From positions 997 through 64,996 of the forward strand of contig PMOK01000168.1 in the NCBI GenBank assembly GCA_003162425.1: a DNA stretch of 64,000 nucleotides, read 5' to 3'. Made by a program: the position numbers and the translations under genes. Positions 12,775-42,575 of this stretch are shown here, piece by piece. The notes beneath the pieces are model-generated. The model saw nothing but the letters and a program-made list of their open reading frames with translations, had not been told where the DNA came from and searched no databases. How positions within the stretch are numbered: the first letter of the stretch is position 1; each line of letters starts with the position of its first letter. The stretch comes from Bryobacterales bacterium. GTDB lineage: Bacteria; Acidobacteriota; Terriglobia; Bryobacterales; Bryobacteraceae.

Positions 12775-12888
12775 TACCGGCCCCCACAGGTCACCGCCGA
12801 GCGGAACCAGGACGTCAATATGCCATATTCCGGGAACGTCGTTTTTCATTCTCAATCTGCCGACTGGGGTAAAATCGTTCGACACTCT

Positions 12889-18696: not shown

Positions 18697-18721
18697 TACA
18701 TGACGGCTTGTCTCATCAATC

Positions 18722-18964
18722 TTACTTCACGTGGTTGCTGGCCAAAAGCGAGCGGGCTTCACGCGCGTCCAAACCGCGCTGAATCAGATCGACGTCTTCA
18801 TCCGTGAAGGGGAGCGGCTTCCAAGTCATTTGTGCGAAGTCATTTGAATCCCACTGCGCTTTCATTACGCCGCTTTCCGAGTGCCGGGGGATTCCTTGCA
18901 GGATATGGGTGTTCTCATAGACGAGCACGTGCGCCAGCACCGCGTGCACTTGGTTGGGCATCAT
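18722..18964 (-). CDS. small hypothetical protein occupying the position where a sigma-factor gene is expected
   Basis: 80 aa from MMPNQVHAVLAHVLVYENTH.. to ..LLASNHVK*. Its stop is 25 nt upstream of the kinase ATG. The rest of track ORF 18722..19267 is antisense to a sigma fragment. Confidence 0.3.
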   Translation of the reverse strand: MMPNQVHAVLAHVLVYENTHILQGIPRHSESGVMKAQWDSNDFAQMTWKPLPFTDEDVDLIQRGLDAREARSLLASNHVK

Positions 18965-18983
18965 CTTGCTCACTCTATCGTAA

Positions 18984-19188
18984 GAAGATCTGGTTTCGCT
19001 CGACGATGTCCTGAATGCTCTTGCCGAGGTGGACGCGCGCAAGGCTCGTGTGATCGAACTCCGTTTCTTTGGCGGCCTGAGCGTGGAAGAGACGGCCGAG
19101 GTACTTAAGGTTTCATCGGATACCGTCCTGCGGGACTGGCGACTTGCCAGAGTTTGGCTCTTAGCCGAGATCAGCCGCAGAAGTTGAA
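18984..19188 (+). pseudogene. ECF sigma factor region-4 fragment, inverted relative to the kinase and frameshifted
   Basis: EDLVSLDDVLNALAEVDARKARVIELRFFGGLSVEETAEVLKVSSDTVLRDW, then one extra C near 19140, then (R)LARVWLLAEISRRS* in the next frame. It parallels residues DPDLVALDD..RDWKLAKVWL of the sigma gene at 22208. It has no start codon and no regions 2-3. Confidence 0.7.
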
Positions 19189-19404
19189 CCATCACGAAGA
19201 TTGGGACTGAAAAACGCGCTTGTCGGAGTATGGGGGGAACATGGCTGCTTCGTGAGGTCGTTACCAAAACGCTAAGCAGATGTAGTTAGTCTACGCTTCG
19301 CGACTGGCCTAGATCCCGGCGCGCGTGACCGGATTGTTGCATGGGACAACGCATCCGCAACCGCTTCCTCCGGTACGCACCAAACAAGGTCCGATGTGCA
19401 CGCC

Positions 19405-22218
19405 TTAATGGAACGCGCCGATGCGAACCTGTATGACACCGGAGTCTGGCTCCTCGGTGGATTGTAAGAAGTAGATCCTCAGGCCATCGCGGCTTACGGC
19501 TAATGGTCGCGAACCGCTGTCCATGCCGAGCGGTCCGGGTACTGAAAACAGCGGTACAGGAGTGGTGAAACGCAATTGAGTACCCACGCCGTCCACGCGA
19601 ACGGACCAGATTCGATCTTGATCAAAATATAAGATCTCTTTGCCATCCTTGCGCCATACGGCGAAATTGCCGCTATTCGCGATTTGCCTGCGAAGGCCGT
19701 GGCTCGTCAGCGGGTGCACGTAAATTCCAGATTCCGATTCAGCGTGGTAAACGGTCCATGCGCCGTCGGGAGACATCGCGGCGTTATCGACGCGCTGTTC
19801 CACAACCTGCTCCGGTCGACTCCCTCGATCGAGGGAAGCCGAAAGAAGGATAGCATCTTGTTTACGGAATTCACTGTAAAGGATTCGACGCCCATCCCCT
19901 GAAATGTCGTGCAACCAGAGCTGCACCCCTGAAGCAGGATGCTCCGGGTACATCCGAATCTCGGCGGAGCCAGTTATGGACAGCTTGACTATTTCTGCGC
20001 CTCTGACGCCAATCAGTCCCGAACCGTCAGGTGTCCAGACAATCGGTACAGCAGATCCTAGGCTGGTGCGGCCGGGTCCGTTGGATTCCATTACCCATGA
20101 GCCCACACTCGACGACACCAGTACGTGCGCTTCGTCAGGCGCTAGTCCGATGATTTCTGCGGGGACAGAAGCGCCAGCCGACCCTATTCGATTCCCCTTC
20201 CGGTCAAAAATCATCACTTGTGAAATGACCGCGGTTCCGCGACGCCACACAACGGTACCGGAGCGCGAGACGGAGAAGTATGCGTTGCGAGACGTGGCGT
20301 TGGATGCGACCCCCTCTTGAACGAGTTCGGGATCGCCAACTAAGTGACGGGCCTTCACATCAATCCTTTGCGGGTAGAGATTATCGTTTCGGACCCACAG
20401 AATGTGGCCGCCGCCGGCGCTCGTAAAGGCTGCGGCTGTATCGTTGCTGAACAACAACCGCGGATCGATAGCCTTCCCGCCCCGCATCGTCGCAATAAAC
20501 AGCTGGGCCTCAGCCGAGTCAGAAGGTGTGAACACAAATAGGAAATCTTCACCGCCCGGAAGGAACTCCGGGTTATAAAAACGACCCTCCTTGACCCCGG
20601 GCACCTCGACTGGAAATGCCCTTCCTCCGGTGGCGGGTACGCCGTACAAACCTATGTGAGCCGGAGAGGTTTGAATAATGGCGAAAAGGATAGTCCCTTT
20701 CTCGCTCCAGCTGCCCCCGCGGTAGGAGCCCTTAGAGGTCTCAGTGGTGATCAACTCCGTGGCGCCGTTGGGTATCTGCATTTTCATTAGACCACTGACA
20801 GTCGGGAATGCAATTGATTTAGAGTCGGGAGCCCAGAACGGATTGCCACCCCAAACAAAAGGAGGTAGCGAGTGATCTTGAAGCGAACCCAAGCTTCGTA
20901 TATGGAATCTGGCGTCGTTTGCACGATACACAACCGCTGATCCATCAGGTGAAATCCTTTCAACGCTGAGTCCACCGACGCGGACAAGATTCCTACCATT
21001 CGGTGGAACGATACTGAGCACTAATTCCGGCAAGGCGTTCGGAGCGGGAGGCTTTTCGCGGAAGTGCAGAAACGCCACCAATGCTAGGCACACTGCCAGT
21101 CCGGCAGCCACGCTCCAGGCTAGCCACAGGTGCCGAAACCCACCGGGCTCTGGTGCGCCTTCCGGGAGTGGCGTCTGACCATCACCGGAAACGCTCCATT
21201 CGAGGGCCCGCTTAAGATCGCGCGCAGTTTGAAAGCGGTCGGCCGGGTCCTTGGCGAGACATGCTCTCACCACCCGGTTCAACCCCTCCGGCTCCAGCTC
21301 CGGTGGTTCACGCTCCAAAATAGCTGCGATGATGCTGGCCGGACTGGCCCCCTCAAACGCACACTTACCAGTGATCATTTCGTAGAGCACCAGGCCGAAC
21401 GAGAAAATGTCGCTCCGCGCGTCCACCTCCTGCCCCTGCACCTGTTCCGGCGACATATATTGCACGGTGCCGATGATCGCTCCCGCTTCCGTCAGCGTGC
21501 TGATTGCTCGTGTCACCGTCCCCGAAGCGCCGACCTTCGCCACCCCAAAGTCGAGCACTTTCGCCCCCGCCTTCGTCAGCATGATGTTGCCAGGCTTCAG
21601 ATCGCGATGGATCACGCCGTGGCGATGAGCCGTTTCGAGCGCATCGGCTATGTGCACCGCGATCTGCAAAACCTGATCCAGCGGGAACGACCCTTTCTTT
21701 AGGCGGTCCGCCAGTGTTTGGCCCTCCAAGTACTCCATCACCAGGTAGTTAATTCCATTCTGGTGACCGACATCGTGGAGCGTGCAGATGTGCGGATGGT
21801 TCAGGCTGGAGATAGCTTTCGCCTCGCGCTCAAATCTCTCTCGGACTTGAGGTGTACTGGAAAGATGCTCGGGAAGAACTTTGATTGCGACGATTCGGTC
21901 CAGCCTGGTATCTTCGGCACGGTAGACCTCGCCCATGCCGCCCGCGCCCAACAGGGAAAGGATCTGATAAGCGCCGAGCTGCTGACCGATCATCGAGCCA
22001 ACGCGGTCCTGGGCTACCGCTTGGGCCAGCACTGCCATCCCAGGCGCATCCATGAACTTGTTTGCGGGTTCCTCGTGCGAGAGCAGCGATTCGATTTCCT
22101 GGCGAAGGGTCTCGTCGCCACGGCAGGCCTCTTCTAGGAACGTCGCACGTTGGCTCACTTCCCGCGCGAGCGCGAGGTGGTAGAGCCGCTCGATTTGCTG
22201 CCAGCGCTCAGGCGTCAT
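19405..22218 (-). CDS. Ser/Thr protein kinase (N-terminal ERW helix, TM, beta-propeller-like C-terminus)
   Basis: MTPERWQQIERLYH.., [39 protein letters not shown]; TM LWLAWSVAAGLAVCLALVAFL. Its start overlaps the end of the sigma gene. Confidence 0.95.
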   Translation of the reverse strand: MTPERWQQIERLYHLALAREVSQRATFLEEACRGDETLRQEIESLLSHEEPANKFMDAPGMAVLAQAVAQDRVGSMIGQQLGAYQILSLLGAGGMGEVYRAEDTRLDRIVAIKVLPEHLSSTPQVRERFEREAKAISSLNHPHICTLHDVGHQNGINYLVMEYLEGQTLADRLKKGSFPLDQVLQIAVHIADALETAHRHGVIHRDLKPGNIMLTKAGAKVLDFGVAKVGASGTVTRAISTLTEAGAIIGTVQYMSPEQVQGQEVDARSDIFSFGLVLYEMITGKCAFEGASPASIIAAILEREPPELEPEGLNRVVRACLAKDPADRFQTARDLKRALEWSVSGDGQTPLPEGAPEPGGFRHLWLAWSVAAGLAVCLALVAFLHFREKPPAPNALPELVLSIVPPNGRNLVRVGGLSVERISPDGSAVVYRANDARFHIRSLGSLQDHSLPPFVWGGNPFWAPDSKSIAFPTVSGLMKMQIPNGATELITTETSKGSYRGGSWSEKGTILFAIIQTSPAHIGLYGVPATGGRAFPVEVPGVKEGRFYNPEFLPGGEDFLFVFTPSDSAEAQLFIATMRGGKAIDPRLLFSNDTAAAFTSAGGGHILWVRNDNLYPQRIDVKARHLVGDPELVQEGVASNATSRNAYFSVSRSGTVVWRRGTAVISQVMIFDRKGNRIGSAGASVPAEIIGLAPDEAHVLVSSSVGSWVMESNGPGRTSLGSAVPIVWTPDGSGLIGVRGAEIVKLSITGSAEIRMYPEHPASGVQLWLHDISGDGRRILYSEFRKQDAILLSASLDRGSRPEQVVEQRVDNAAMSPDGAWTVYHAESESGIYVHPLTSHGLRRQIANSGNFAVWRKDGKEILYFDQDRIWSVRVDGVGTQLRFTTPVPLFSVPGPLGMDSGSRPLAVSRDGLRIYFLQSTEEPDSGVIQVRIGAFH

Positions 22219-23552: not shown

Positions 23553-23768
23553 GATTGACATCTAAAACGATCCATCGCGGCTCTTCTGACTAGGCGACCG
23601 GGCGCTGCGTCCCTATGGGTCTGCGGATCAAAGGTCTTGCCTGGCCGGCCTAGCGTTTACCTATCGGGCAGCCGGGCCGTTTTCTGGGAATTGGCCTGAT
23701 AAACGCGCAACTCGTCCCATTTCCTGATCTGACGAAAATTGGTCAGCGGATTATGGAGACCGCTGACA

Positions 23769-24761
23769 ATGAAAAACAAGACTGTGAAACAGAAGCGCCC
23801 CTCTCCCAAAAGAGTGCTTCGCCTCCCCGACCTCGATTACGCGAAAACGGTCGTCCTGAACACACTCAGTTCCGCAGATTCGCGGCGATCCTATCGATTT
23901 GCCATTGACGATTTCGTCACATGGTACTGCTCGGAACCGAGGCTCGCTTTCAGTAAGACCGTTGTTCTCCGATACAGACTGGAACTGGAGGGCGGTCATT
24001 TGGCCCCGTCCACGATCAACCTGCGCCTCGCTGCGGTTCGCCGCCTCGCGTACGAAGCAGCCGACACCGGGCTCCTCAGCCCCGATTTGGCCGCTGGTAT
24101 TCGCCGGGTCAAAGGAGCAAAAAAGGTGGGCGTCCGACTCGGAAATTGGCTCACCGCAGATCAGGCCAAAGCGCTCCTGCGCGCCCCGGACATCGAAAAA
24201 GTTCGGGGGAAGCGCGACCGCGCAATGCTGGCGGTCTTGCTTGGTTGCGGATTGCGCCGGTCTGAAATTGTCCACCTGAGCGTCGATCATCTTCAGAAGA
24301 GGGAAGATCACTGGGCCATTGTTGACCTGATCGGGAAGGGCGGCCACATACGGACCGTTCCGGTTCCGGAATGGGTCAAAGCGTCGGTTGACGATTGGGT
24401 GACGGTAGCAAACATCGGCACAGGGAGACTGTTCCGTTGTGTTAACAAGACCGGCTCAGTCTGGGGCAGCGGGATCACAGAGAAAGTCGTGTGGAGTGTC
24501 GTGAAAGAGTTCGCCGCTACTGTAGGCATCGATAAGTTAGCCCCTCATGATCTTCGACGGACTTGCGCCCGGCTGTGCCATTCTGTTGGCGGAGAGCTTG
24601 AGCAGATTCAGTTTCTGCTCGGACATGTGAGTGTGCAGACCACTGAGCGTTACCTTGGCTGCAAACAGCGTCTGCGGGGAGCTGTGAACGATTGCATCGG
24701 AATCGAGCCTGAGATGCAAACGAAGCTGCAGATCGCTGGAACTGCCGTTAGTTCAGGCTGA
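23769..24761 (+). CDS. tyrosine recombinase / phage-type integrase
   Basis: RDRAMLAVLLGCGLRRSE (Arg I), HDLRRTCA (H-x-x-R), LLGHVSVQTTERY (catalytic Tyr). ATG 23769 is preferred over the TTG at 23739. A 7-bp stem TCAGCGG/CCGCTGA lies just upstream. Confidence 0.9.
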   Translation: MKNKTVKQKRPSPKRVLRLPDLDYAKTVVLNTLSSADSRRSYRFAIDDFVTWYCSEPRLAFSKTVVLRYRLELEGGHLAPSTINLRLAAVRRLAYEAADTGLLSPDLAAGIRRVKGAKKVGVRLGNWLTADQAKALLRAPDIEKVRGKRDRAMLAVLLGCGLRRSEIVHLSVDHLQKREDHWAIVDLIGKGGHIRTVPVPEWVKASVDDWVTVANIGTGRLFRCVNKTGSVWGSGITEKVVWSVVKEFAATVGIDKLAPHDLRRTCARLCHSVGGELEQIQFLLGHVSVQTTERYLGCKQRLRGAVNDCIGIEPEMQTKLQIAGTAVSSG

Positions 24762-24851: not shown

Positions 24852-26090
24852 TCAATCCGGTTCGAGTAAGCCTGCCTTGAACAACGGACGCCCGGCCACG
24901 GCGGTGTGGAAGGCGTAGGCGGTCAAGGCGAGGATCACAACCAAAACGAAGACGGTTGTGCTCGCGTACCAGGTGGAGAAATCCGCAATCGGAAAGCCGC
25001 CCAGAGTGTTGCCCACAAAAAGGCATACGATCGTCGGCAGCAATCCTCCAAACCGGAGCAGGGTTGCAGCAAACAGCGTAAAGAATGAGATCTCGCCGAC
25101 CGCCCTGATCACAGGGTGAACGTCGCCGAATGCCGCCGAAGCCCCGAGCAGGACGAAAGCGGCCGCCGCGAGCCATTGCCCCCGCAGCAGCACGCGGAGC
25201 AACATAAGGACGAAAGTGAGCAACATTCCAAAAAGGAACGCACTGACCATCTCAGTTAGCAAACTGTCCGCCAGGCCCCGTGCATCCAGGGACGAAAGTA
25301 GTCCAGCGTTCGTGACGGGGCGATACTGCCCCAGAGCCAGCCGTCCACCTGAGTTCAGGAGCGCAAGTCCGATGCCCAAAGCCACACCGAAAAGGAGGTG
25401 TCCGCCCACCAACGGATCGCGAAATCCGCCACTGAGCACGCGGCTCCAGGTGATCATGCTCTGCGGCCAGCGCCTTCTCACATAAGGCTCGAACGCCAGG
25501 TAAAGCGCCCATATGGTTACCGTAGGGATCGCGGCGTCTAGCGCACCCGAAAGAAATACGCCGGCTTCGCTCAGCGCGGCAACAGGGTGGGTAGTCAATA
25601 GATGACTCAGCCAGGCTCCGCCGAAGACGAAGGCTGCCGCCCGGTTCGCTCCGCGGAAGTCGCCTCGTTTCGCCCGGAAGTTGCGCCAGGCTAGAAAAGC
25701 ACCCAGTGCGAGCACCACCATGACGACCACCAGTGGGCCAGGCGGGACGCCCGAGGACTGCGCCATTCGTTCGGGCTTGGACCAGGGCCCGATGACCCGG
25801 AAGAACACCGGCTTCCCGCGCCAGGACGCAGCTTCGATCCGCATCGGGACCTCGGTAGCGCTCGCGTATGATCCTGTCCATGATGCTCGCGCATCGAAGG
25901 GGGTGAGCGAAACCCACTGCGGCTCCGCCGAAGCGAAGCGCGTCATATCCAGGCCAGCCGCTGTGAATAAAACCTTCCAGTCAAAGGGAGCGGTCAGCGA
26001 AAGGTTGTCCTCTACTTGCGGCGGCACAGCGTCGAGTTGAAGCAACCGGCCTTGCGGATCCAGACTGAGCCCAATCATCCCGGAGACCAT
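24852..26090 (-). pseudogene. 5'-truncated gene: periplasmic-like segment plus a polytopic membrane domain
   Basis: 412 aa with about 8 hydrophobic helices. It begins abruptly (VSGMIGLSLDPQGRLLQL..) exactly where the repeat at 26096 starts. It resembles C-terminal halves of acidobacterial membrane kinases (recollection only). Confidence 0.55.
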
Positions 26091-26469
26091 GGGCGGACCG
26101 GTTCTCTACCGCGGGAAACAGGTCTACATCCAGGGTGAGCCGCTATTCGACATCGAGTATTCGGACCAACTTCTGATCCGCCTCCTAGAGGCCTTTAATC
26201 CAGAAAAGTATGGTCGACGCGTCGAGCAGATCAACCTGATGGACATCGATCCGGACAAGCTGACGCCAGCGCAGCTCGATAGGATCGCGGAGCACCTGAT
26301 CCAGAAGGCTTTAACTGGCAAACCTGAAGCTATGGTAGCCGAAGCACGGCGCCGGCTAGAAGCTGGGGAGACCGTAACAGTTGAGGCGCTGGCGGAGGAG
26401 ATGACGGAGGAGCCTGGGCACACTGGTGGTTCTCGAGAAGGGCAAGCGACCACCGGTGTGGTGCCATGA
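26089..26469 (+). pseudogene. 5'-truncated phage/ICE-type gene (terminase small-subunit-like), copy 1
   Basis: PVLYRGKQVYIQGEPLFDIEYSDQLLIRLLEAFNPEKYGRRVEQ... The pattern ..YSD.LLI.LL.A..PEKY.. recalls small-terminase/HTH proteins of prophages. The Met at 26089 is fortuitous, at the junction. Confidence 0.5.
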
Positions 26470-26555
26470 GTGATTGAGACAGCCTCAGCCGAGGCCCGCA
26501 AACAGCTCGAAGCTGGCCGCCGTTGCTATCGACGCCGAGTCGCCCGCGGTTGAAA
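26096..26555 (+). repeat. direct repeat, left copy, flanking the NRPS cassette
   Basis: Aligns with 35165-35637. The first ~165 bp differ at 6 positions by eye, and similarity continues past the ORF stop (..CGCAAACAGCTCGAAGCT..). Confidence 0.85.
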
Positions 26556-27219: not shown

Positions 27220-30200
27220 TCATCGCTTCGGCGAAGGCGCGTTTGCACCGGAGCCTCTCTTTTCAACATCCTGCGATTCGTCTAGGTACCGACTCAGTTT
27301 TGTCGCCAGAATTCCAACAGCGGGCTCAAAGAACACGCCTGTGTGGTCTCCCGGAATCTGGTGAACCTCCAGGCCGTCCTCTACTAGTTCACGCCAGCCC
27401 AATTGGATTTGCCAATAAGCGCCTGAGGGACGCCAGGAGGACTGGAACAGCACGACGCGGGCGGGGTAGCGGTGAGGTCGATAGGCACTGGCTGCAGAGT
27501 ACAGGATCTGATCTGCGTCCTGCGATCCGCTTTTGCTTAGGGGAGTCCCAACGTCGCTGGACAAGTGGTGAACCAGCCGCTTGCCCCGGCCGATGAGAGC
27601 ACGCAATCGGGACTTCAAATGGGTGAGAACCTTACTCACTCCGTCTTGGCGCAGATTTGTGATATGGAACGCGACTCTCTCGAGCCCCACTCTCATTCGA
27701 GCCATGACCGAGAGCTTCCAGAAATACGACCAATTCCGAGTGTCGATCAAGGCCAGGAGAGCCACCTGCTGCCCGCCACAAATGAGCTGTCTGGCCGTTT
27801 CGTACGCCAGGAGTCCGCTGAGGCACCAGCCTCCTAAATAGTACGGACCCTCGGGCTGCACTTCGCGCACTGCTCTCACCACACAAGCGGCGATATCTTC
27901 CAGCGTAGAGGGGACCGGCCCGTGCATTGAATCTAAGCCGCGAAGATCGATACCCAAGAGCGGCTGGTCAGAACCTAAGCGATCCGCGAGAGGCAGAAAA
28001 GCGGGGCCGCCTCCCAGGCAGAACAAGGGTGGCCGGGAACCAGCGGGCTGAATTGGAATCACTCGAAGAAGCTGGGCCGCGGAGTCCCCGGTTCGCATCG
28101 CGGTCGCCAGTTTTTCCACCGTGGGTGCCTGGAAGATGGTAGCCATCGACAGTTTCTGTCCGAAATCTCGTTCCAAGCGAGCAAGCATTTTTGCCACCAG
28201 CAGGGAATGGCCGCCCAGCTCGAAGAAATTATCCTGGGGCCCAACGCGGCTCACGCCGAGGAGCGTTCCCCAGATTTTCCCCAGCTGAAACTCCAAGGCA
28301 TCCACCGGAACCAAATCCTCGACTGAAGTGAAATCGTCTCGCTGGGGAGCTGGCAGTGCGCGGCGGTCAATCTTTCCGTTCGGCAATAGCGGTAACGATT
28401 TTAGAATCACGAACTGGGACGGCAGCATGAACTCCGGCAGCTTCCGTTCGAGGAAGCTTCGCAGCCCCTCGTGCATAACCGCTTTTCCTGGATGAGGCAC
28501 GATGTACGCCACCAACCGCTTCTCCTGCTGGTTGTCCTCCCAGGCGGACGCGGCAACGGCCAGGACCGAGGGGTGCGCCGCCAGCATCGCCTCGATCTCA
28601 CCCAGTTCGATCCGATAGCCGCGAATCTTCACCTGGAAGTCTTTTCTTCCCAGGAACTCGATGCTGCCGTTGGCGAGCCGCCGTCCCATGTCTCCGGTTC
28701 GATAGATCCTCTTGTTTCCGCCCTGCGGGTCCGGGAGAAAGGCCGCCCTGGTCAATTCCGGTTTCTGCCAATAACCGAGGGCGAGATGCGCGCTTCGGAT
28801 ACCGATCTCTCCATATAGGTCGGTTGGTTGGGCGGATTCATCCAGCAGCAGAACCTCCGTTTCCTCGACCGGATAGCCGACCGGCACCGACGCCCGGTCA
28901 ATCGGTGTTTCCTGATCGATAAAATACTGCAGCGTTACGGTTGATTCAGTTGGTCCGAATCCGTTGACAAACAGGCAGCCTTCGGAAAAATGCTTCCGGT
29001 ACAGATCCACATCCCTTTTGTCGGCGGCTTCTCCTCCCAAGACAATCAAACGAACGCTGGAGAAATCCTCCCCACCCCGCAAGGAACCCGCAAAATAGCG
29101 ATATATGGTCGGGGTGGAATGATAGATAGTAATCCGCTGGGCCGACAACCAGCCGGGCAGACTGCCGATTCCCTCGGCCCTCAGGTCGATTGGACATAGC
29201 CCCGCTCCATTGAGTAATGCGCCGAAGACGTCCATTACAGCCGCGTCAAAGCAGTAGGAGGAAATCAAGCTCAGCCGGTCGCTGGCGTCGATGTGCAGTG
29301 CGTTGGTGTAGCTGCTGATAAAGTGAAGCACATTCCGATGATTCTGCGCGACGCCTTTGGGCCGCCCGGTGGAACCGGAGGTGTAAAGAATGTACGCTGC
29401 CGCGTCCGGGGAAATGGAGAGCCCAAGGTCGTGTTCGGGAATGGAGGTCTGCTTCTGATCGACGTTCAGTACAGGAGTCTTTTTGTTTGACAGTTCATTG
29501 GCTAGAGACAGATTGGCCGCATTGGTCAGGATTGCGGCCGCCTGGCAATCATCCAAGACGTAGGAGATCCTCTCCCGCGGATAATGTGGGTCAATCGGAA
29601 CGTAGGTCTTACCCGCGTTCAGCACGCCCAGCATGCCGGCAATCATGGGAGCGTCCTGCTCAAACAGCAGAGCAATGTTCTCTGGTGCTGGCCCGCGCAA
29701 ATCCAAGAGAGCGCGTGCGACCTGGTTGGCTTTCCGTTTGAGAATCTCGTAGGTCCACTCACACCGTCTGGAGCGGACGGCAACGCGATCCGGATGCCGC
29801 CTCGCTTGCTGCTCGAAGCGCTGGAATATGGACTGCTCAATCTGGTCCCGTTCGAATCGCACAAAGGAGCTGTGGGGACAGACTGCATTGCGGCGGGTGG
29901 AAAGCTGCCGCCGCTCATCGCCGGAGAGGAGGGGCAAGGTCGAAATCGGCCGGTCCGGGTAGTCCACGATCCCGTGGAGCAACCTCTCCAGGTGCTCACG
30001 CATACGATCGATGGTCGCCGCTTCAAACAGGTCGGTGTTGTAGCGGAAGCGGCCGACCAAGCCTTCCGGCCGGTCGTCCAATGCGAGGTAGAGATCGGTT
30101 CTCGCCATGCCCGTATCGACGTCGATCTGCGTCAGTTGCCAGCCGGGCGAAAGATCCGGGAGCTGAGGCTCGAGAACGAACATCGCTTGAAACAGCGGGT

Positions 30201-31365
30201 GGCGGCCGGGGTCCCGTTCGGTTCCGAGTTCCTGCACCAGGCGATACACCGGAACATCGCCATGCGATAAAGCGCCTAACGTCACTTCTCGAACGCGCCG
30301 GACCAGTTCCCGGAATGTCGGGTTCGCCGAAAGGTCGGTGCGCAGCACCAAGGTGTTCAGAAAGAAACCCAGGAGACTTTCTACTTGCGGCCGTTTTCGG
30401 ATGGAATTGACCGTGGCGACGACGATGTCGGTTTGCCCGGTGTAGCGATAGAGCAAGGCCTGAAAGGCAGCCAGCAGTGTCATGAAGAGCGTGACGCCTT
30501 CGCGTTGGCTGAGCGCCTTCAAGGCTTCGGTCAAGCTCCCTGAAAAAGCGAAAGTCGGTTGCGCGCCGCGGAAACTGAGTAGCGGGGGACGGGGTCGGTC
30601 CACCGGCAACTCCAATGTCGCAGGCGCACCGGACAGTTGTTGCTTCCAGTAAGCGAGTTCCTCGGAAGCATCGTCTGGGAAAACCTCGCGTTGCCAATGA
30701 ACAAAGTCAGCGTAGCGGATGGGCAACTCGGGAAGCGACGGCGGTTTTCCGGTGGAACAGGCTTCGTACAAGCTGGCCAGCTCCGGGAGGAATACATTGT
30801 TGAGGGAGATGCCATCGAAGATGATGTGATGCAGGGTGAAGAATAAGCGGTGTTGCTCGTCCTCGAAGCGCACCAGCATGGCTCTGAGTAGCGGCCCCCG
30901 TTCCAGATCGAAAGGCCGACGCGAGTCTTCCGTAGCCAGCCTCAGAGCTTCTGCTTCTCGCTTGACCTCAGGAAGCCCGCGCAGGTCGACCACAGGCAGG
31001 TCGAGCGGGAACGGAGGCTGGACGATCTGGACCGGCTGCCCGTGCAAGCAGTGGAACGTGGTTCGCCAAGCCTCGTGCCGGCGAATGATCGCACTCAAGC
31101 TCTGCTCCAACGCCTTGACATCCAGCGGACCAGAGCGGTGTATGGTGACTGGCTCGTTGTAAATGGGGAGACCGGGGTCCATTTGAGCGTGCAGCCATAT
31201 TTGCTGTTGTCCATAGGAAAGTGGAGCGACGGGACCGGCTGGGCCGCGGGAAATCGGAGGCAGGCCGGCAGGTCTTGGCGGCAGATCTCCGCGGAGATAT
31301 TTTTGGAGCAGGAGGCGCTTCGAATCTGAAAGATGGGCCGCTTCAGCCATGGAACGCGGCACCAC
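27220..31365 (-). CDS. NRPS module C-A-T-TE
   Basis: C: HHIIFDGIS. A: LYTSGSTGRPKGV, FDAAVMD, NGFGPTE, YRTGDMGR, GRKDFQVKIRGYRIELGEIE, LPNGKIDRRAL. T: FFELGGHSLL. TE: GGWCLSG..LIDT..PGDH. An alternative ATG at 31350 gives ATGgcTGA overlap with the P450 stop. Confidence 0.95.
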   Translation of the reverse strand: MVPRSMAEAAHLSDSKRLLLQKYLRGDLPPRPAGLPPISRGPAGPVAPLSYGQQQIWLHAQMDPGLPIYNEPVTIHRSGPLDVKALEQSLSAIIRRHEAWRTTFHCLHGQPVQIVQPPFPLDLPVVDLRGLPEVKREAEALRLATEDSRRPFDLERGPLLRAMLVRFEDEQHRLFFTLHHIIFDGISLNNVFLPELASLYEACSTGKPPSLPELPIRYADFVHWQREVFPDDASEELAYWKQQLSGAPATLELPVDRPRPPLLSFRGAQPTFAFSGSLTEALKALSQREGVTLFMTLLAAFQALLYRYTGQTDIVVATVNSIRKRPQVESLLGFFLNTLVLRTDLSANPTFRELVRRVREVTLGALSHGDVPVYRLVQELGTERDPGRHPLFQAMFVLEPQLPDLSPGWQLTQIDVDTGMARTDLYLALDDRPEGLVGRFRYNTDLFEAATIDRMREHLERLLHGIVDYPDRPISTLPLLSGDERRQLSTRRNAVCPHSSFVRFERDQIEQSIFQRFEQQARRHPDRVAVRSRRCEWTYEILKRKANQVARALLDLRGPAPENIALLFEQDAPMIAGMLGVLNAGKTYVPIDPHYPRERISYVLDDCQAAAILTNAANLSLANELSNKKTPVLNVDQKQTSIPEHDLGLSISPDAAAYILYTSGSTGRPKGVAQNHRNVLHFISSYTNALHIDASDRLSLISSYCFDAAVMDVFGALLNGAGLCPIDLRAEGIGSLPGWLSAQRITIYHSTPTIYRYFAGSLRGGEDFSSVRLIVLGGEAADKRDVDLYRKHFSEGCLFVNGFGPTESTVTLQYFIDQETPIDRASVPVGYPVEETEVLLLDESAQPTDLYGEIGIRSAHLALGYWQKPELTRAAFLPDPQGGNKRIYRTGDMGRRLANGSIEFLGRKDFQVKIRGYRIELGEIEAMLAAHPSVLAVAASAWEDNQQEKRLVAYIVPHPGKAVMHEGLRSFLERKLPEFMLPSQFVILKSLPLLPNGKIDRRALPAPQRDDFTSVEDLVPVDALEFQLGKIWGTLLGVSRVGPQDNFFELGGHSLLVAKMLARLERDFGQKLSMATIFQAPTVEKLATAMRTGDSAAQLLRVIPIQPAGSRPPLFCLGGGPAFLPLADRLGSDQPLLGIDLRGLDSMHGPVPSTLEDIAACVVRAVREVQPEGPYYLGGWCLSGLLAYETARQLICGGQQVALLALIDTRNWSYFWKLSVMARMRVGLERVAFHITNLRQDGVSKVLTHLKSRLRALIGRGKRLVHHLSSDVGTPLSKSGSQDADQILYSAASAYRPHRYPARVVLFQSSWRPSGAYWQIQLGWRELVEDGLEVHQIPGDHTGVFFEPAVGILATKLSRYLDESQDVEKRGSGANAPSPKR

Positions 31366-32629
31366 GCGCAGCCGATTCAGGGTCTGCTATCCGGACGGGC
31401 AGGGCTGTCAAGCCGCGCAATCCCAGGTTTTGCCGCCAAACCAGAGGCCCGGGTTCCAGAGTAAGATTCGGAAGCCGGCGCAGCAACGTTTCGAAAGCAA
31501 TTTGAGCTTCCATGCGAGCCAAGGGAGCGCCGAAGCAAAAATGAGCGGCCCAACCGAATGCCACGTGCCGGTTGTCCACGCGCGTGATGTCGAGCCGGTC
31601 CGGGTCGGCAAATCGCTCCGGATCGCGATTGGCGGCGCCCATCACGGCAATCACGGCCTGGCGCTTGCGGATCAGTTTTCCGCCCAGTTCCACGTCGGCC
31701 GGCGCCATGCGGGTGGTGTGCTGGCTGGGGGTCTCATAGCGCAGCAGCTCTTCGATCGCGGAAGGAATCCAGGAGAGGTCAGCCCGCAGTGTTTCCAATT
31801 GATCGGGGTTGCGCAGCAAGCTGAGCATGCCGTTTCCAATCAGGTTGGTTGTGGTTTCCTGGCCCCCCACCATGGTCACGATACAATTGGCGATCACCTC
31901 TTCTTCGCTCAACCGGTCGCCTCCGATCTCGGCCGTACTCAGCGCATGGATGAGGCCCTCCCGCGGATGGTCGCGCTGTTCGCGGATGGCCGCGCGAAAA
32001 TAGGCGGTCATTTCCTCGACGCTTTTCAGTACGCGCGGAATGCGGTCCGGGTTGTATTGGAAGTTTCCGAGCATCTCAGCGAAATCCGCGGACCAGGCTT
32101 TGAGTTGAAGATGGTCGGCAACCGGCACACCCAGCATTCCGGCCGTGACGATGGCGGGCAACGGGCTGGCAAAGTCTCGCAGCAAATCCATACTGCTCCC
32201 GGCCGCGACCGCATCCAGCAGGCTATCGGCGATCTCCTGGATGTGAGAACGCAACATGGCCACCCGGCGGGGCGTGAAGGCCGCGGAGGCGAGGGCGCGC
32301 AGCCGAGTATGTGCCGGCGCGTCCATGAAAAGCATCTGGCTCACCATCATTTGAGCGATGGGGTTCAACGCCGCGAGTCCGATCGCCGTCAGATGCTCGG
32401 GCGTGGGTGTTACATCGGCGGAGAAGTCGTGCAGCACTTGGATCACGTCACAATAACGGGTGACCACCCAGGCGTGCAGGAAGATATCCCAATGCACCGG
32501 GTCCTCGGTCCGGAGTCGGTGATAAAGAGGATAGGGGTTGGCAAGAACCTCAGGGTCGAGCAGATGGTAGAGGCTCAAAGAAGGACCGGGCTGGGTGCCT
32601 TGGTGGGCGGGAACTGCGCTTGTCGTCAC
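31343..32629 (-). CDS. cytochrome P450
   Basis: I-helix MVGGQETTTN, ExxR EELLRYETP, heme loop FGWAAHFCFGAPLAR. Its start lies 4 nt after the A-T gene stop. Confidence 0.95.
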   Translation of the reverse strand: MTTSAVPAHQGTQPGPSLSLYHLLDPEVLANPYPLYHRLRTEDPVHWDIFLHAWVVTRYCDVIQVLHDFSADVTPTPEHLTAIGLAALNPIAQMMVSQMLFMDAPAHTRLRALASAAFTPRRVAMLRSHIQEIADSLLDAVAAGSSMDLLRDFASPLPAIVTAGMLGVPVADHLQLKAWSADFAEMLGNFQYNPDRIPRVLKSVEEMTAYFRAAIREQRDHPREGLIHALSTAEIGGDRLSEEEVIANCIVTMVGGQETTTNLIGNGMLSLLRNPDQLETLRADLSWIPSAIEELLRYETPSQHTTRMAPADVELGGKLIRKRQAVIAVMGAANRDPERFADPDRLDITRVDNRHVAFGWAAHFCFGAPLARMEAQIAFETLLRRLPNLTLEPGPLVWRQNLGLRGLTALPVRIADPESAARGAAFHG

Positions 32630-32632
32630 GTG

Positions 32633-34558
32633 TCATTCTCTCTCTGCTAAAGCGTTCAGGGCCTCTTCTTCGCTCATGGCTTCCAGCCCGGCGATCATCA
32701 ACCGTTCGATCAAGGCGGACATGGCGCTCACAGTCGGATGCTCGAACAGGTTGCGCAAAGAAAGTTCCACTCCGAAGACACTGCGTACTCGCGCGATCAC
32801 TTGTGCCCCAAGCAACGAGTGGCCGCCCATTTGGAAAAAGTTGTCCTCAACGCCCACTTGTTCCAGATTCAGCAGACTCTTCAGGATTCCCGACAAGTGC
32901 TGTTCCACCGCCGTGCGAGGAGCGACGAAGATCGGCGCGCTCTCGGGATCCGGAGCCGGTAGTGCGGCGAGATCCAATTTACCGTTCGGGGTGAGCGGAA
33001 GAGCGGGAAGAAACACAAAGAACGCCGGCAGCATGTAATCGGGCAGTTTCGTTTTAAGGAACTCCCGAAGAAGCTGGCAGGAGGGCTGGGAGTCCGGAGC
33101 CGTTACAACATACGCGATGAGTTGCTGGTCACCCGGTGTGTCTTCGCGCGCCACGACCAGGCTCGATTCGATCATCGGGTGAATATTCAGCAAAGCCGAG
33201 ATTTCGTCTGGTTCGATACGGTAGCCCCGGATCTTGATCTGCCGATCCGCTCGCCCCAGAAAAGCGACCTGGCCATCCGGCAAAAACCGCCCCAGGTCGC
33301 CGGTTCGATACATGCGGGCGCCCGGTGTTGCGCTGAACGGATCAGGAATGAATCTTTCCGCGGTAAGCTCTGGGTCATTCCGATATCCGCGCGCCAGGCT
33401 CGCCCCGCCGATGTACAGTTCGCCAGCTTGGCCGGGCGCGACCGGTTGTTGATGGTTGTCCAGAACGTATACTTCGGTGTTGGCGATGGGCCAACCAATT
33501 GGTGGCAGCGCGTCGCAACATTCTTCCGGCTTCAAGGCGCCGGAGGTCGCCACCACCGTGCATTCGGTAGGTCCGTAATTGTTCACTACCTCGAACGGCA
33601 GGCCGGGCGGCGGATAGCGGTGGAGCCGATCGCCACCAGTGAGCATCGCGCGCAACGCCGTGCCGCGTGGCCATTCCAGCCTCATCACGCGCTCGGCCAT
33701 AGGCGTGGGAACAAAGCTGATCGTGATCTCTTGGGCCACTAGCCAGTCCCGCAGAAGCTCCGGGGATTGGCGCGTTTCGTCATCGGCAAGATGGACGCTG
33801 GCTCCAGCGGTCAGGTATGGCCACAACTCCCAGACCGCCGCGTCGAAGCTCAGACCGGCGATCTGGCTGGCGCGGTCGGCTGATGTCACTTGGAAGGCAT
33901 GCTGGTGCCACGACACCAGGTTGGACAGGCTGGCATGTGTGATCTCGACTCCTTTCGGGGAGCCAGTGGAGCCGGAGGTGTAAATCACGTAAGCCAGTTG
34001 TTGAGTCAGAGCTTCATCGACCGGAGAGCTCGCATCCTGGCGCGCAATGCTTCGACTTCCGGCGTCCAGTTCCACTACCTGGCAGCCGCCGGAGGGAAAG
34101 CGCTGAGCCAAGTCCGCATCTGTCACCAGTACCGGAGCGTGGGCATCACGCAACATGAAGGCTAAGCGGTCCGACGGATAAGCAGGGTCCAATGGAAGAT
34201 AGGCGGCGCCAGCCTTTAGGATGCCTAAGGCGGCAACCGGCAGTCCGATGGAACGGTGCAAGCAGAGGCCAACGACCACCTCCGGCCCGACACCGAGCAT
34301 GCATAGTCGGTCGGCCACCTGGTCGGACCGAACCTCAAGCTCCCCATAGCTCAACGCCTCTCCGTTTGCGACTAGCGCGACCTGCTCAGGCCGGGCGGCC
34401 GCGTGAGCCGCCACGAGCTGAGGCACACAAGCACCCGTTTGGTTTCCGAGTGACACCCGGTTGCCGTCGTTCGTAGACACCGAACTGCAGGGAACGGCTA
34501 GGCCCCGAAACATAGCTTGCTGCTGGTTGAACCGGTATTGTAACCCGAGACCCGGCAA
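32633..34558 (-). CDS. NRPS loading didomain A-T (predicted Leu)
   Basis: IYTSGSTGSPKGV, FDAAVWE, NNYGPTE, YRTGDLGR, GRADRQIKIRGYRIEPDEI, TPNGKLD, FFQMGGHSLL. Stachelhaus residues read by alignment to GrsA give DAWFLGNVVK. ATG at 34513 is a likelier start than the TTG at 34558. Confidence 0.95.
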   Translation of the reverse strand: MPGLGLQYRFNQQQAMFRGLAVPCSSVSTNDGNRVSLGNQTGACVPQLVAAHAAARPEQVALVANGEALSYGELEVRSDQVADRLCMLGVGPEVVVGLCLHRSIGLPVAALGILKAGAAYLPLDPAYPSDRLAFMLRDAHAPVLVTDADLAQRFPSGGCQVVELDAGSRSIARQDASSPVDEALTQQLAYVIYTSGSTGSPKGVEITHASLSNLVSWHQHAFQVTSADRASQIAGLSFDAAVWELWPYLTAGASVHLADDETRQSPELLRDWLVAQEITISFVPTPMAERVMRLEWPRGTALRAMLTGGDRLHRYPPPGLPFEVVNNYGPTECTVVATSGALKPEECCDALPPIGWPIANTEVYVLDNHQQPVAPGQAGELYIGGASLARGYRNDPELTAERFIPDPFSATPGARMYRTGDLGRFLPDGQVAFLGRADRQIKIRGYRIEPDEISALLNIHPMIESSLVVAREDTPGDQQLIAYVVTAPDSQPSCQLLREFLKTKLPDYMLPAFFVFLPALPLTPNGKLDLAALPAPDPESAPIFVAPRTAVEQHLSGILKSLLNLEQVGVEDNFFQMGGHSLLGAQVIARVRSVFGVELSLRNLFEHPTVSAMSALIERLMIAGLEAMSEEEALNALAERE

Positions 34559-35037
34559 AATACTATAGGTACTAGCAGTTCAATTGCAGTTGTGAAACTT
34601 CCGGCATCAGGAGATTGCCACTTGGCTCTGATCATTAGCCATCCGAAAGAGCTGCAAAAGCAAGATTCTGGGGACATATGACAAAAGTTGTCGAGTTCCG
34701 GCGAACATGTCCTCTACGGAGTAGTACTGATAGTACATAATTTCGTCGAAAGAGTCTGGGCACATAATAAGCCTTCCGATTCCCTCTCGCAGTGAGACTT
34801 CTGGGAGCCGAAACAACTAACTTACGGCCCTGCTGGCGCCTGGGGTCACCGACGATCTGAGAACCGTCTGGGCGAATGCCGATGGTTCAGTAACGTTGAT
34901 CGGTGCAGGGGCCCAACCGTCCTCTTCGGGGTGATTATTGGTCGGCGCGGAAGTTTTGAATTGCTCATACGGCAACGCGCCGGTTGCATAGCGTGCCAGC
35001 AGAGCAGCCAGAGTTGGGTTCCGCGCCGCCGCCTTGA

Positions 35038-35502
35038 CGATCCGGTCAACCCGACTGGCTGCGAAAAGACGCAACGTACCCCGCGCGATTTGCTCAAGCA
35101 CGAGAGCGAGCTACCCAGACCCTTGAAGACGAGGCTGTTCGTCGGGCTGTGGAGGGAGTCCGCAGACCGGTTCTCTACCGCGGGAAACAGGTCTACATCC
35201 AGGGTAAGCCGCTATTTGACATCGAGTATTCGGACCAACTTCTGATCCGCCTACTAGAGGCCTTTAATCCTGAAAAGTATGGTCGACGCGTCGAGCAGAT
35301 CAACCTGATGGATATCGATCCGGATAAGCTCACGCCCGAAGTACTCGATAAACTGGCTGATCATCTGATTCAGAAGGCGCTGAAAGAGAAGGGGTTGAAT
35401 AGCCCCGAGATGGTAGCTGAAGTCGGCCGCCGTCTGGAGGCCGGGGAGACCGTGACCGTTGAGGCGCTGGCGCAGGAGCAGACGGATGAGCCTGGGAAAT
35501 GA
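35038..35502 (+). pseudogene. 5'-truncated terminase small-subunit-like gene, copy 2 (longer than copy 1)
   Basis: The frame is open from 35038 with no start: ..ARFAQARERATQTLEDEAVRRAVEGVRRPVLYRGKQVYIQGKPLFDIEYSDQLLIRLLEAFNPEKYGRR... The track ORF starts at GTG 35149. Confidence 0.55.
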
Positions 35503-35637
35503 GCACGCTGGTGATTCTCGAGAGGGCAAGCGGCGACGGGTGTGGTGCCGCGAGTGTTGACACGGCTTGCCGAGGCTCGCAAACAGCTCGAAGCTCGCGC
35601 CGTTGCAATGACGCCGAGGCGCCCGCAGTTGCGAAAA
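35165..35637 (+). repeat. direct repeat, right copy, flanking the NRPS cassette
   Basis: See 26096-26555. Same orientation, 9069 bp apart. Confidence 0.85.
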
Positions 35638-36488: not shown

Positions 36489-36564
36489 TATAACCCAGCG
36501 TGACGTTCAGCGGAAACGATGCCCCCACCTCCGCCAAAACCCTCAAATGCCCGGTCTGCTCGCA

Positions 36565-36872
36565 GCGCAATGCTGTGGCGACTAAGCCTATTGCGCTTCA
36601 GCCGCTTTCCGCAGCGACGGGCAATCGAAATTCAACACTACTCTTGGGAGCATGAAAAACGCCGCAGATCGTAGTGCCGCCGCGAAGAAGGCTGCGGCCA
36701 CCAGGAAACGCCGTGACGCCGCGAAGAACGCCGCTGCAAAACGAAAGCATCGGGCGGCTGGCCACAAGGCCGCTGAGACACGAAAAGCGAATGTTGCAGC
36801 GAGGAAGCGTAGCAACGCCGCAAAGAAGGCTAACGCGACGCGCAAGCGCAATGCTGTGGCTACTAAGCCTAT
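36565..36872 (+). repeat. 27-bp direct repeats bracketing the basic-protein gene
   Basis: 36565-36591 GCGCAATGCTGTGGCGACTAAGCCTAT versus 36846-36872, 1 mismatch. The upstream copy reads ..RNAVATKPIA.. in frame, i.e. the relic of the 3' end of a previous gene copy. Confidence 0.7.
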
Positions 36873-36927
36873 CGAGACCAAGCTAGAGAATGCAGTTGAG
36901 GCACTCGGGTCAGGGCCGATTCTGTAG
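36652..36927 (+). CDS. histone H1-like / Ala-Lys-Arg-rich basic protein
   Basis: GGGAG RBS 5 nt before the ATG. 91 aa of AAKKA/ATRKR-type repeats (AAAKKAAATRKRRDAAKNAAAKRKHRAAGHKAAETRKANVAARKR..). Confidence 0.55.
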   Translation: MKNAADRSAAAKKAAATRKRRDAAKNAAAKRKHRAAGHKAAETRKANVAARKRSNAAKKANATRKRNAVATKPIETKLENAVEALGSGPIL

Positions 36928-37566: not shown

Positions 37567-37845
37567 TCATTTCCCCGGCTCCTGCTCCACCGCACGCATG
37601 CAATCCTCGAACGTCGGGTTCTCGCCAGCTTCGATGAGCCGCTGCGCTTCTGCGACGGCTCGCTGATTTCCGCCTAAGGCCCTGCTGAGCAAGTGGTCTG
37701 CGATGACGTCGAGTTGGTCCGGCGTCATCTTGTCCGGATCGGTCTCCCACAGCAAGGCGCTGCGATCGACGAACATGCCGATCTCTTTCCCGATCAGCTC
37801 CTCACAGCGCGCCGCGGCCCCAACCCATTCGATTCGGCGCTCCAA
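37567..37845 (-). CDS. third, diverged and inverted paralogue of the terminase-like C-terminal module
   Basis: DPDKMTPDQLDVIADHLLSRALGGNQRAVAEAQRLIEAGE parallels DPDKLTPAQLDRIAEHLIQKALTGKPEAMVAEARRRLEAGE of copy 1. The N-terminus differs; TTG start. Confidence 0.45.
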   Translation of the reverse strand: MERRIEWVGAAARCEELIGKEIGMFVDRSALLWETDPDKMTPDQLDVIADHLLSRALGGNQRAVAEAQRLIEAGENPTFEDCMRAVEQEPGK

Positions 37846-40029: not shown

Positions 40030-40215
40030 TTTACGTTTGTCTGTTGTTTCAGAGAATCGAATTGCTCGCTGAGCCATATGAGGTTCCTCTAATTTGTAAG
40101 GTGGTGGCGGCGGCACTTTGGGACAACGAAAATCAAGAAATCGACGGCGCATCCCCACGGGGATGCATTTTTTCGAACTGCATCCCGCGAGAAGTGCAAG
40201 CGCAGTAAGAAGAAA
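40030..40215 (-). repeat. copy A of a ~165-bp repeat: promoter region plus the first 16 codons of the RHH gene
   Basis: 40052-40215 aligns with 42411-42575 with about 10 mismatches by eye. It encodes MAQRAIRFSETTDKRK and then breaks into the antisense of the DUF2252 fragment. Confidence 0.8.
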
Positions 40216-40348
40216 CGACGCCCTCGATACGCCTCTGAGTCAGGCAACAAGACGAATGGAAGTCTGGGTAGCGGAACACGAAAGGTCCCCACGACGGTGA
40301 CCTGGAAGCCTGATACCAACCTGGGTTTTCGTTATTTGAGGATGACAA

Positions 40349-42036: not shown

Positions 42037-42436
42037 TTTTCACCAACTCCTGCATTGCCCGCCGCGAATCGTCACCCATCGCCTGGCCCGCGCTTTTCAA
42101 CAATCGGGCGTGCCGGCCTTGCGCCCTGGCCACGGCCGCAGCCAACGCATGTCCGTCCGGCTCGGGAATGCAGGTCAGCAGAATCTTGGCGAGACTGTCC
42201 ACCAGGGCGAACAAGGCCTGCTGCGCTCGATCCAGTGGTACCATCCCCTGCCGGAGCTGCTCAATGCTGGCGGCCAACCGGTCCTCAGCACCGAGCAGTT
42301 CTTCCCTTTGGCCGGACAATTCCTGCTCCACCGCATGGCGAATGAACCCCGTTGGCGATGAAAAGCCGCGCTTCTCGGTCGCCTCTCGGATACGTTGGTC
42401 GGTCGTCTCGGAGAATCGAATCGCTCGCTGAGCCAT
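42023..42436 (-). CDS. ribbon-helix-helix protein, MobC-like relaxosome accessory candidate
   Basis: MAQRAIRFSETTDQRIREATEKRGFSSPTGFIRHAVEQEL (RHH) plus a helical tail. SD AGAGGGA; 14-nt overlap with the relaxase fragment. Confidence 0.6.
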   Translation of the reverse strand: MAQRAIRFSETTDQRIREATEKRGFSSPTGFIRHAVEQELSGQREELLGAEDRLAASIEQLRQGMVPLDRAQQALFALVDSLAKILLTCIPEPDGHALAAAVARAQGRHARLLKSAGQAMGDDSRRAMQELVKNGER

Positions 42437-42575
42437 ATGAGGTCCCTCTAATTTGTAAGGTAGTGGCGGCGGCACTTTGGGACAACAAAAATCGAGAAAT
42501 CGACGGCGCATCCCCACGGGGATGCATTTTTTCGAAATGCATCCCGCGAGAAGTGCAAGCGCAGCAAGCAGAAAC
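42411..42575 (-). repeat. copy B of the ~165-bp repeat (intact context)
   Basis: Contains the hairpins GCATCCCCACGGGGATGC (42508-42525) and GATGCATTTTTTCGAAATGCATC (42521-42543), upstream of the RHH gene. Confidence 0.8.

Follow-up and report, generated by a model that had tools for sequence, protein, structure and literature searches.

A compact nonribosomal peptide synthetase cassette with a leucine-type A-T didomain and a CYP107-like P450 belongs to a very large bacterial family

We examined a 64,000-nt window of contig PMOK01000168.1 from a Bryobacterales bacterium (Acidobacteriota). Our subject is a nonribosomal peptide synthetase (NRPS) cassette formed by the minus-strand genes between 27220 and 34513. 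The cassette encodes a free-standing didomain of one adenylation (A) and one carrier (T) domain, a cytochrome P450 and a termination module composed of condensation (C), A, T and thioesterase (TE) domains:

32633..34513, minus strand: gene 1, free-standing A-T didomain of 626 aa, predicted L-Leu loading module (Pfam AMP-binding, AMP-binding_C, PP-binding)
31343..32629, minus strand: gene 2, cytochrome P450 of 428 aa, CYP107-like (Pfam p450)
27220..31350, minus strand: gene 3, C-A-T-TE termination module of 1376 aa (Pfam Condensation, AMP-binding, AMP-binding_C, PP-binding, Thioesterase)

An earlier reading of this DNA, made from the letters alone and called here the sequence-only reading, had described three coupled minus-strand genes in this order, and the open reading frames (ORFs), the junctions and the Pfam domains all agree with it. 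The TGA of the A-T gene (32635-32633) is followed after 3 nt (CAC) by the GTG start of the P450 gene at 32629, and the TGA of the P450 gene overlaps the ATG of gene 3 in ATGGCTGA (31350-31343), both as that reading had stated. The ORF finder lists minus-strand ORFs at 32633-34558, 31343-32629 and 27220-31365, and public gene calls hold exact products of 626 aa (ATG 34513), 428 aa and 1376 aa (ATG 31350). Gene 3 starts at ATG 31350, giving 1376 aa, and not at the GTG at 31365 taken by the ORF finder. The most likely start of the A-T gene is ATG 34513 and not TTG 34558, which makes the gene 45 nt shorter than the ORF, because the exact 626-aa product is on record and because homology with a sister contig stops 58 nt upstream of this ATG. 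The catalytic motifs are complete in all three genes. No MbtH-like motif was found anywhere in the 64-kb window, and the ORFs on either side of the cassette show no domain of a transporter or regulator, in line with the earlier remark that MbtH, transporter and regulator are missing here. Promoter and terminator scans at the cassette borders gave one weak sigma-70-like match upstream, no better than in shuffled sequence.

The A and T domains of the two NRPS genes are placed as follows:

32978..34408, minus strand: A1 adenylation domain (Asp235-equivalent codon 33842-33844; Lys517-equivalent codon 32978-32980)
32708..32896, minus strand: T1 carrier domain (phosphopantetheine Ser in GGHSL, codon 32816-32818)
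28372..29817, minus strand: A2 adenylation domain with the code DAMHVGGVTK (from Pfam and code extraction)
28102..28281, minus strand: T2 carrier domain (Ser in GGHSL, codon 28204-28206)

The equivalents of Asp235 and Lys517 are present in both A domains, and the A core of gene 3 reads FDAAV...NGKID. Specificity codes were extracted at the GrsA-equivalent positions, by motif at first and afterwards with a script based on MAFFT, and read DAWFLGNVVK for A1 and DAMHVGGVTK for A2. The same codes had been read by hand in the sequence-only reading, and the independent script extraction, a check named beforehand, returned identical letters. The A1 code is the classical, canonical Leu code, indicating that Leu is activated in unmodified form. 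The A2 code DAMHVGGVTK has no match in the searchable literature, and the text of the PARAS supplement has neither the A1 nor the A2 code. Among known codes the nearest is presumably the Glu-type DAWHFGGVDK (7/10 positions), which we do not take as a prediction.

For comparison across the family we examined 83 related loci (cited by L numbers); the phyla were read from the best 80 loci of a collection of one genome per species. A domains with the code DAMHVGGV[T/S/C]K form a separate clade, 53-57% identical to A2 of the window and 90% for L003, and this clade also holds the A domains of L039 (DAIHVGLLNK, 55%) and L057 (DAMHVGCVV-, 53%). The remaining A domains of the set are at most 44% identical to A2. 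The tail that follows the T domain of the A-T protein, IERL..A.LEAMSEEEA..L, is conserved among the homologues.

The P450 carries its heme Cys ligand in FGWAAHFCFG (codon 31535-31537), the I-helix motif GGQETT and the motif EELLRY; the first two of these are invariant across a 22-sequence P450 alignment. The acid-alcohol pair in GGQETT and the Cys ligand are thus intact, as expected for an O2-activating monooxygenase. The closest solved P450 is BioI (CYP107H1, 3EJB; E 4e-81, 40% identity, 156/389 residues), followed by CYP107P2 (8YHN), PikC and PksS, with CYP107P2 and PikC scoring nearly equal to BioI. The top 60 PDB matches are BioI, CYP107P2, PikC, PksS, EryF and similar CYP107-type enzymes. 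P450 nomenclature sets family membership at 40% identity or more to a member, and from its sequence the enzyme would be a borderline member of CYP107. Its matches to NCBIfam models are all far under the cutoffs (199 bits against a cutoff of 500 for TIGR04538, a cyclodipeptide-associated P450 model). An AlphaFold2 model built from the 22-sequence alignment is poor, with a mean pLDDT of 65.7.

The sequence-only reading had led us to expect a P450 that groups with the solved aminoacyl-carrier beta-hydroxylases, and this is not what we found, the best relatives being of the CYP107 type. A place among P450s that act on free substrates had been named there as speaking against the proposal, and the CYP107-type relatives point partly that way; yet BioI itself is carrier-dependent, its substrate being carrier-protein-bound and 3EJB being a complex with acyl carrier protein (ACP) loaded with its acyl chain. 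Many JGI gene calls label the homologous P450s as 'pimeloyl-[acyl-carrier protein] synthase' (BioI). This label is probably an annotation-transfer error, because the P450s that bear it invariably adjoin an NRPS A-T gene.

At least 582 species-level genomes hold a relative of this P450 that is 67-86% identical (582 of the 598 candidate stretches), and metagenomic homologues number in the thousands at 75-98% identity. The best 80 loci are mostly from Acidobacteriota, and the rest come from Methylomirabilota/Rokubacteria, Chloroflexota (Ktedonobacteria), Dormibacterota, an actinomycete bin and others. The cultured carrier within Chloroflexota is Thermogemmatispora carboxidivorans PM5 (L081), whose downstream NRPS has at least three modules (C-A-T and then C-A-T-C-A-T) and runs to the end of the locus as fetched. 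Across the locus sample the mean identity of the P450s is 74% for pairs from one phylum and 72% for pairs from different phyla, with no value below 66%, and the A-T proteins have a mean identity of 55%.

The A-T gene stands directly before the P450 gene in every locus with enough sequence save two: L064, which lacks an A-T gene, and L017, where the two are separated by a free-standing C gene. Of the A domains encoded by these A-T genes, 73 carry the code DAWFLGNVVK and three more differ from it at one position. Downstream of the P450 we found C-A-T-TE proteins (about 14 loci), free-standing C domains with further modules, or longer multi-module lines. The partner A codes there include some that are presumably Gly-, beta-Ala-, Ser-, Thr- and Val-type, and others that are unassigned. 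Twelve loci lack a stop between the P450 and the following NRPS protein and so encode in-frame fusions of the form P450-C-A(-T)(-TE) or P450-A-T(-TE):

P450-C-A-... fusions: L035, L043, L045, L054, L055, L062, L065, L066, L078
P450-A-T(-TE) fusions: L047, L050, L073

The linkers of these fusions keep K..L(I/L).KYL, the equivalent of the N-terminus of gene 3 in the window. The proposal that the Leu A-T protein and the P450 work as one functional unit thus gains strong comparative support, from a pairing that is constant in more than 80 loci of several phyla and further from the varying downstream modules and the 12 fusions. Neither a paper on this Leu-A-T/P450 family nor a characterized cluster of such architecture was found in the searchable literature. 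The family is strikingly widespread and conserved, and apparently uncharacterized.

The remaining domains of gene 3 are its C and TE domains:

29902..31227, minus strand: C domain (motif HHIIFDGIS, second His codon 30826-30828)
27340..28017, minus strand: TE domain with a Cys nucleophile (Cys1176 in GGWCLSG, codon 27823-27825; Asp in LIDTR; His in GDH, codon 27343-27345)

The C domain is preceded by a conserved N-terminal element, KRLLLQKYL, and scores 285 bits with Txo2, 265 with DhbF C2, 221 with TycC6, 125 with AB3403, 88 with AmbE (7R9X) and about 67 with starter C domains. These scores place it, as predicted from sequence, with the ordinary elongation type (Txo1/2, DhbF C2, TycC6) and far from AmbE and the starter C domains. 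We considered a dehydrating C domain of the AmbE CmodAA type and rejected it on sequence (88 bits for AmbE vs 285 for Txo2 and 265 for DhbF C2). The C domains that follow the P450 in the related loci form a motif clade, H[HQ]IIFDG[VI][SA] or SHIIFDGVA, in place of the usual HHxxxDGWS. Many orthologous C domains are without one His of HHxxxDG (HQIIFDGVS or SHIIFDGVA), and this one-His motif occurs even where it belongs to the sole C domain of a C-A-T-TE protein.

In the TE alignment GGWCLSG stands opposite GGWCFGG of AB3403 and the catalytic-Ser motif GYSLGG of EntF, indicating that the nucleophile is Cys1176 and not Ser. The Asp in LIDTR and the His in GDH follow at the usual spacing, so that the motif set of the termination module is complete (HHIIFDG, Asp235/Lys517, GGHSL and the TE nucleophile-Asp-His triad, with Cys for Ser). 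The best solved match of the T-TE region is AB3403 (4ZXH, E 1.5e-34), and the Cys motif GGWCLSG is also found in the TE of L003. Thioesterases counted across the related loci comprise 22 with Cys and 19 with Ser. The Cys nucleophile and the membership of the cassette in a very large family are two points that the sequence-only reading had missed.

The cassette lies between repeats, and the repeat copies in its surroundings are the following:

26093..26517, plus strand: left direct repeat, overlapping the small ORF 26089-26469, no Pfam match (context, outside the pathway)
35162..35598, plus strand: right direct repeat, with ORF 35149-35502 (context)
37567..37845, minus strand: third repeat copy, inverted and more diverged

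The left and right direct repeats are each about 430 bp long, are 83-93% identical and enclose the cassette, which had rightly been called repeat-bounded. The small ORFs borne by the repeats are 78-84% identical between the direct copies and 45-52% identical to the inverted copy, with no Pfam match. The JGI metagenome contig L003 matches the window at 90.8% identity across 27255-34571 and nowhere else, with unrelated sequence on both sides of that block. Six flanking proteins were looked for in the 83 related loci and none of them recurs there; at the nucleotide level, too, no similarity was seen outside the cassette. As the match to L003 is confined to the cassette and the flanks are unrelated, the cassette behaves as a movable three-gene block. 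The ratios of nonsynonymous to synonymous substitution rates (dN/dS) between the window and L003 are 0.23 for A-T, 0.21 for the P450 and 0.27 for C-A-T-TE, indicating purifying selection on all three genes, and identical cassette proteins occur on at least 16 contigs from several samples. A tyrosine recombinase gene (Phage_integrase family; 23739-24761, plus strand) lies 2.5 kb from the cassette. A second gene of the Phage_integrase family (45374-46636, plus strand) is directly beside tRNA-Ser(CGA) (46700-46789, minus strand). The stretch from 23 to 47 kb may be one or two integrated islands; a search for att sites around the tRNA-Ser and the integrases found no tRNA-derived repeat.

The arrangement of the first two genes is known from NovH/NovI, NikP1/NikQ and BpsD/OxyD, in which a discrete A-T protein loads an unmodified proteinogenic amino acid and an adjacent, coupled P450 carries an acid-alcohol pair. 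The cassette shows the same traits: the A domain beside the P450, across a 3-nt gap, has the code of an unmodified amino acid (DAWFLGNVVK), and the heme-thiolate ligand and the acid-alcohol pair are both in place. The substrate of those systems is Tyr or His, whereas that of the cassette would be Leu; moreover the cassette P450 is CYP107/BioI-like, there is no dedicated hydrolase in the cassette, and the A-T protein appears to pass its product straight to the C domain, as a first module. BioI, the closest solved P450 (40% over 389 residues), also has a carrier-bound substrate. In biotin synthesis it cuts an ACP-bound fatty acyl chain, whereas the partner of the cassette P450 would be an NRPS aminoacyl carrier.

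P450sky of the skyllamycin pathway reportedly hydroxylates in-line, with no release of the amino acid. As in the cassette, the proposed substrate of P450sky and of PlyR (polyoxypeptin; PMC3943440) is Leu on a carrier domain, and PlyR is proposed to form beta-OH-Leu there (PMC3943440). PlyR resembles NikQ (37% identity; PMC3943440), whereas the cassette P450 resembles BioI, and P450sky and PlyR serve large actinomycete assembly lines, whereas the cassette pair is a portable starter in several phyla. The dipeptide pathways of TxtC, CypX and CYP121 are likewise small and have one P450, which acts after release; the conservation pattern and the fusions of the cassette family argue instead for action on the line.

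For gene 3 the nearest known system is AB3403 of Acinetobacter baumannii (4ZXH/4ZXI), which has the same C-A-T-TE order and the Cys motif GGWC(F/L)(G/S)G and likewise has a separate loading unit upstream that supplies it (PMC10510592). It differs in having a structure with glycine bound, no P450 partner described and only moderate overall identity (C domain 125 bits), and the product of its pathway has not been identified (PMC10510592). Cys thioesterases are known from ObiF, which forms a beta-lactone, and SulM, which forms a beta-lactam (PMC10510592). The TE of the cassette shares with ObiF1 and SulM the Cys for Ser in the triad (PMC10510592), placed at the nucleophile position by the AB3403/EntF alignment, and a beta-hydroxy amino acid would occur in the cassette pathway. 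In ObiF, however, the beta-hydroxy residue is C-terminal and TE-bound, whereas the oxidized Leu of the cassette would be N-terminal under colinearity. We downgraded an ObiF-like beta-lactone route for this reason and because the match to ObiF1 is weak (28.7 bits); the route is weakened further by the sister loci that share the A2 code and carry Ser thioesterases. Taken together, the cassette follows a known logic, that of an A-T/P450 pair acting on a carrier, but with a P450 of a different lineage, a minimal two-module line, a Cys-TE and no release hydrolase.

We propose that the cassette encodes a two-module NRPS with an in-trans P450, in which Leu-S-T1 is oxidized, most likely beta-hydroxylated, and joined to a second amino acid; we put the probability of this reading at roughly 55%. 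The A-T protein would adenylate L-Leu and load it on T1, and the P450 would then oxidize the carrier-bound leucyl thioester, with beta-hydroxylation most likely by analogy to NovI, NikQ, OxyD, P450sky and PlyR. The C domain of gene 3 would take the modified Leu from T1, probably aided by the T1 tail and the N-terminal element of gene 3, and condense it with the second amino acid loaded by A2. Finally the Cys-TE would free a (hydroxy)Leu-X dipeptide, either by hydrolysis or by cyclization to a diketopiperazine or, through the new hydroxyl, to a lactone. Judged from the comparison of loci, the substrate of the P450 is most likely carrier-bound Leu, since the P450 stays 67-86% identical across phyla and so tracks the constant Leu-S-T while the downstream products vary. 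The P450-NRPS fusions, moreover, physically place the P450 on the assembly line. Among the possible oxidations beta-hydroxylation comes first by precedent and is our best guess. What the sequences show directly is the domain set with its intact motifs, the Leu code, the Cys nucleophile, the constant A-T(Leu)/P450 pairing, the fusions at other loci and the purifying selection; we infer Leu-S-T1 as the substrate of the P450, the second residue, the docking role of the T1 tail, the release mode and the regiochemistry.

Several observations weigh against this proposal. No sequence feature fixes beta-hydroxylation over gamma/delta hydroxylation, desaturation or N-oxygenation, and the DAMHVGGVTK code, with no literature match, leaves the second residue unnamed. 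The 60 best PDB matches of the P450 are of the CYP107 type and for the most part use free substrates, and no entry known to be of OxyD, P450sky or NikQ is among them. Cys and Ser thioesterases alternate among loci with one A2 code, so that the Cys points to no single release chemistry. The cassette itself holds no ferredoxin, reductase, phosphopantetheinyl transferase (PPTase) or exporter.

One alternative is that Leu-S-T1 undergoes a different oxidation, such as gamma/delta hydroxylation, formation of dehydroleucine, or N-hydroxylation to a hydroxamate- or N-oxide-type product, and we hold this to be possible, if on the doubtful side. The P450 is of a CYP107/BioI-like lineage (40% identity), unlike the known beta-hydroxylases, and the own motif clade of the following C domains, without the usual DGWS, could reflect an unusual donor. 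The wide spread and strong conservation of the family would also fit a conserved functional group, for example a metal-binding or signaling moiety. However, beta-hydroxylation is apparently the commonest documented outcome for P450s that act on aminoacyl carriers, no positive evidence favors any single one of the other oxidations, and the C domain is not near the dehydrating AmbE type (88 vs 285 bits for Txo2). It is improbable, in our view, that the P450 modifies the dipeptide or diketopiperazine after its release from the NRPS, as TxtC, CypX and CYP121 do with their substrates. A two-module NRPS with a free N-terminus readily yields diketopiperazines, and the P450 has a generic similarity to cyclodipeptide-associated P450 models (TIGR04538, 199 bits vs cutoff 500); yet every NCBIfam match is far below its cutoff. 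Furthermore, downstream residues and module numbers vary while the P450 remains 67-86% identical and tied to the Leu A-T protein, and an in-frame fusion of the P450 ahead of a C domain is hard to square with a post-release enzyme.

Another possibility is that the A-T protein and the P450 make a building block, as BpsD/OxyD/Bhp or NikP1/NikQ do, and supply free hydroxy-Leu for use elsewhere and not by the adjacent C-A-T-TE protein. Several classical A-T/P450 pairs do work in this way, and in some loci, such as L016, L048, L049 and L060, the pair stands apart from other modules or upstream of them. In the cassette, however, there is no separate hydrolase, translation of the three genes is coupled, the tail of the A-T protein is conserved together with the N-terminal element of gene 3, the A domains read only plain Leu and the A2 code, and the C-A-T-TE protein would be left without a donor; this possibility is a shade more improbable still. 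We regard it as very improbable that the cassette is decaying or silent, carried along on a mobile island and making no product. It does lie between paralogous repeats with an integrase gene nearby, and there is no clear promoter or terminator and no PPTase or redox partner in the vicinity. All catalytic motifs are nevertheless intact, dN/dS is 0.21-0.27 against the 91%-identical copy, and the identical proteins recur on at least 16 contigs from several samples.

Elsewhere in the window, a 185-nt direct repeat of 93% identity occurs at 40032-40216 and 42391-42575, 2.36 kb apart, around the region of a Cons_hypoth698 membrane-protein gene. A 28-nt direct repeat of 96% identity (36564-36591 and 36845-36872) lies around ORF 36652-36927 (plus strand), which encodes 91 aa rich in Lys, Ala and Arg (KKAAATRKRRDAAKNAAAKRK...) and is reminiscent of a histone-like or DNA-binding low-complexity protein. 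The region 7430-22218 has a run of four large genes for Ser/Thr protein kinases, which are extended by TPR or PD40 beta-propeller parts, together with a TPR/cyclase-like protein. In the contig annotation (L084) two short extracytoplasmic function (ECF) sigma ORFs of 83 and 108 aa, which may be a split gene, fall at about 22.2-22.8 kb of the window.

Of the 83 loci, 32 have exopolysaccharide-type genes within their 10-kb flanks, and these genes often share the strand of the A-T gene and abut it. A priming transferase of the Bac_transf type is present in 28 loci, as a Pfam check supports, and subsets of the 32 have genes of the Wzz-like, CpsD-like, Wzy_C, flippase, sulfotransferase or GT1 kind. 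The loci with such neighbors include:

Loci with exopolysaccharide neighbors, first part: L004, L013, L014, L019, L022, L035, L038-L040, L043, L045-L047, L050
Loci with exopolysaccharide neighbors, second part: L054-L056, L062, L063, L065-L067, L070, L072, L073, L077, L078, L082 and others

The 64-kb window has no exopolysaccharide-type genes, and we found no paper that describes the association seen in the related loci. More speculatively, the Leu-A-T/P450(/C) trio may be a portable oxidized-leucine starter built on a BioI-like P450 recruited independently of the known aminoacyl-carrier hydroxylases, and its products may be, in place of classical antibiotics, small peptides tied to the cell envelope or exopolysaccharide, or signals; for example, the often-Cys TE could transfer the peptide onto a glycan or lipid carrier. 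We consider this idea unlikely as it stands. If true, it would explain both the identity of about 70-80% in hundreds of soil species and the frequent polysaccharide-operon setting.

Acidobacteriota, Methylomirabilota, Ktedonobacteria and Dormibacterota dominate many soils, are mostly uncultured and have very few known natural products. A self-contained cassette of 7.3 kb whose core is present in at least 582 species-level genomes is among the most tractable entries into the chemistry of these soil phyla, and it is small enough for synthesis and expression. Its characterization would establish which reaction a new lineage of carrier-dependent P450s performs, link a substrate to the A code DAMHVGGV[T/S/C]K and show the role of a Cys thioesterase in a dipeptide system. 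It might also account for the presence of NRPS genes inside exopolysaccharide operons.

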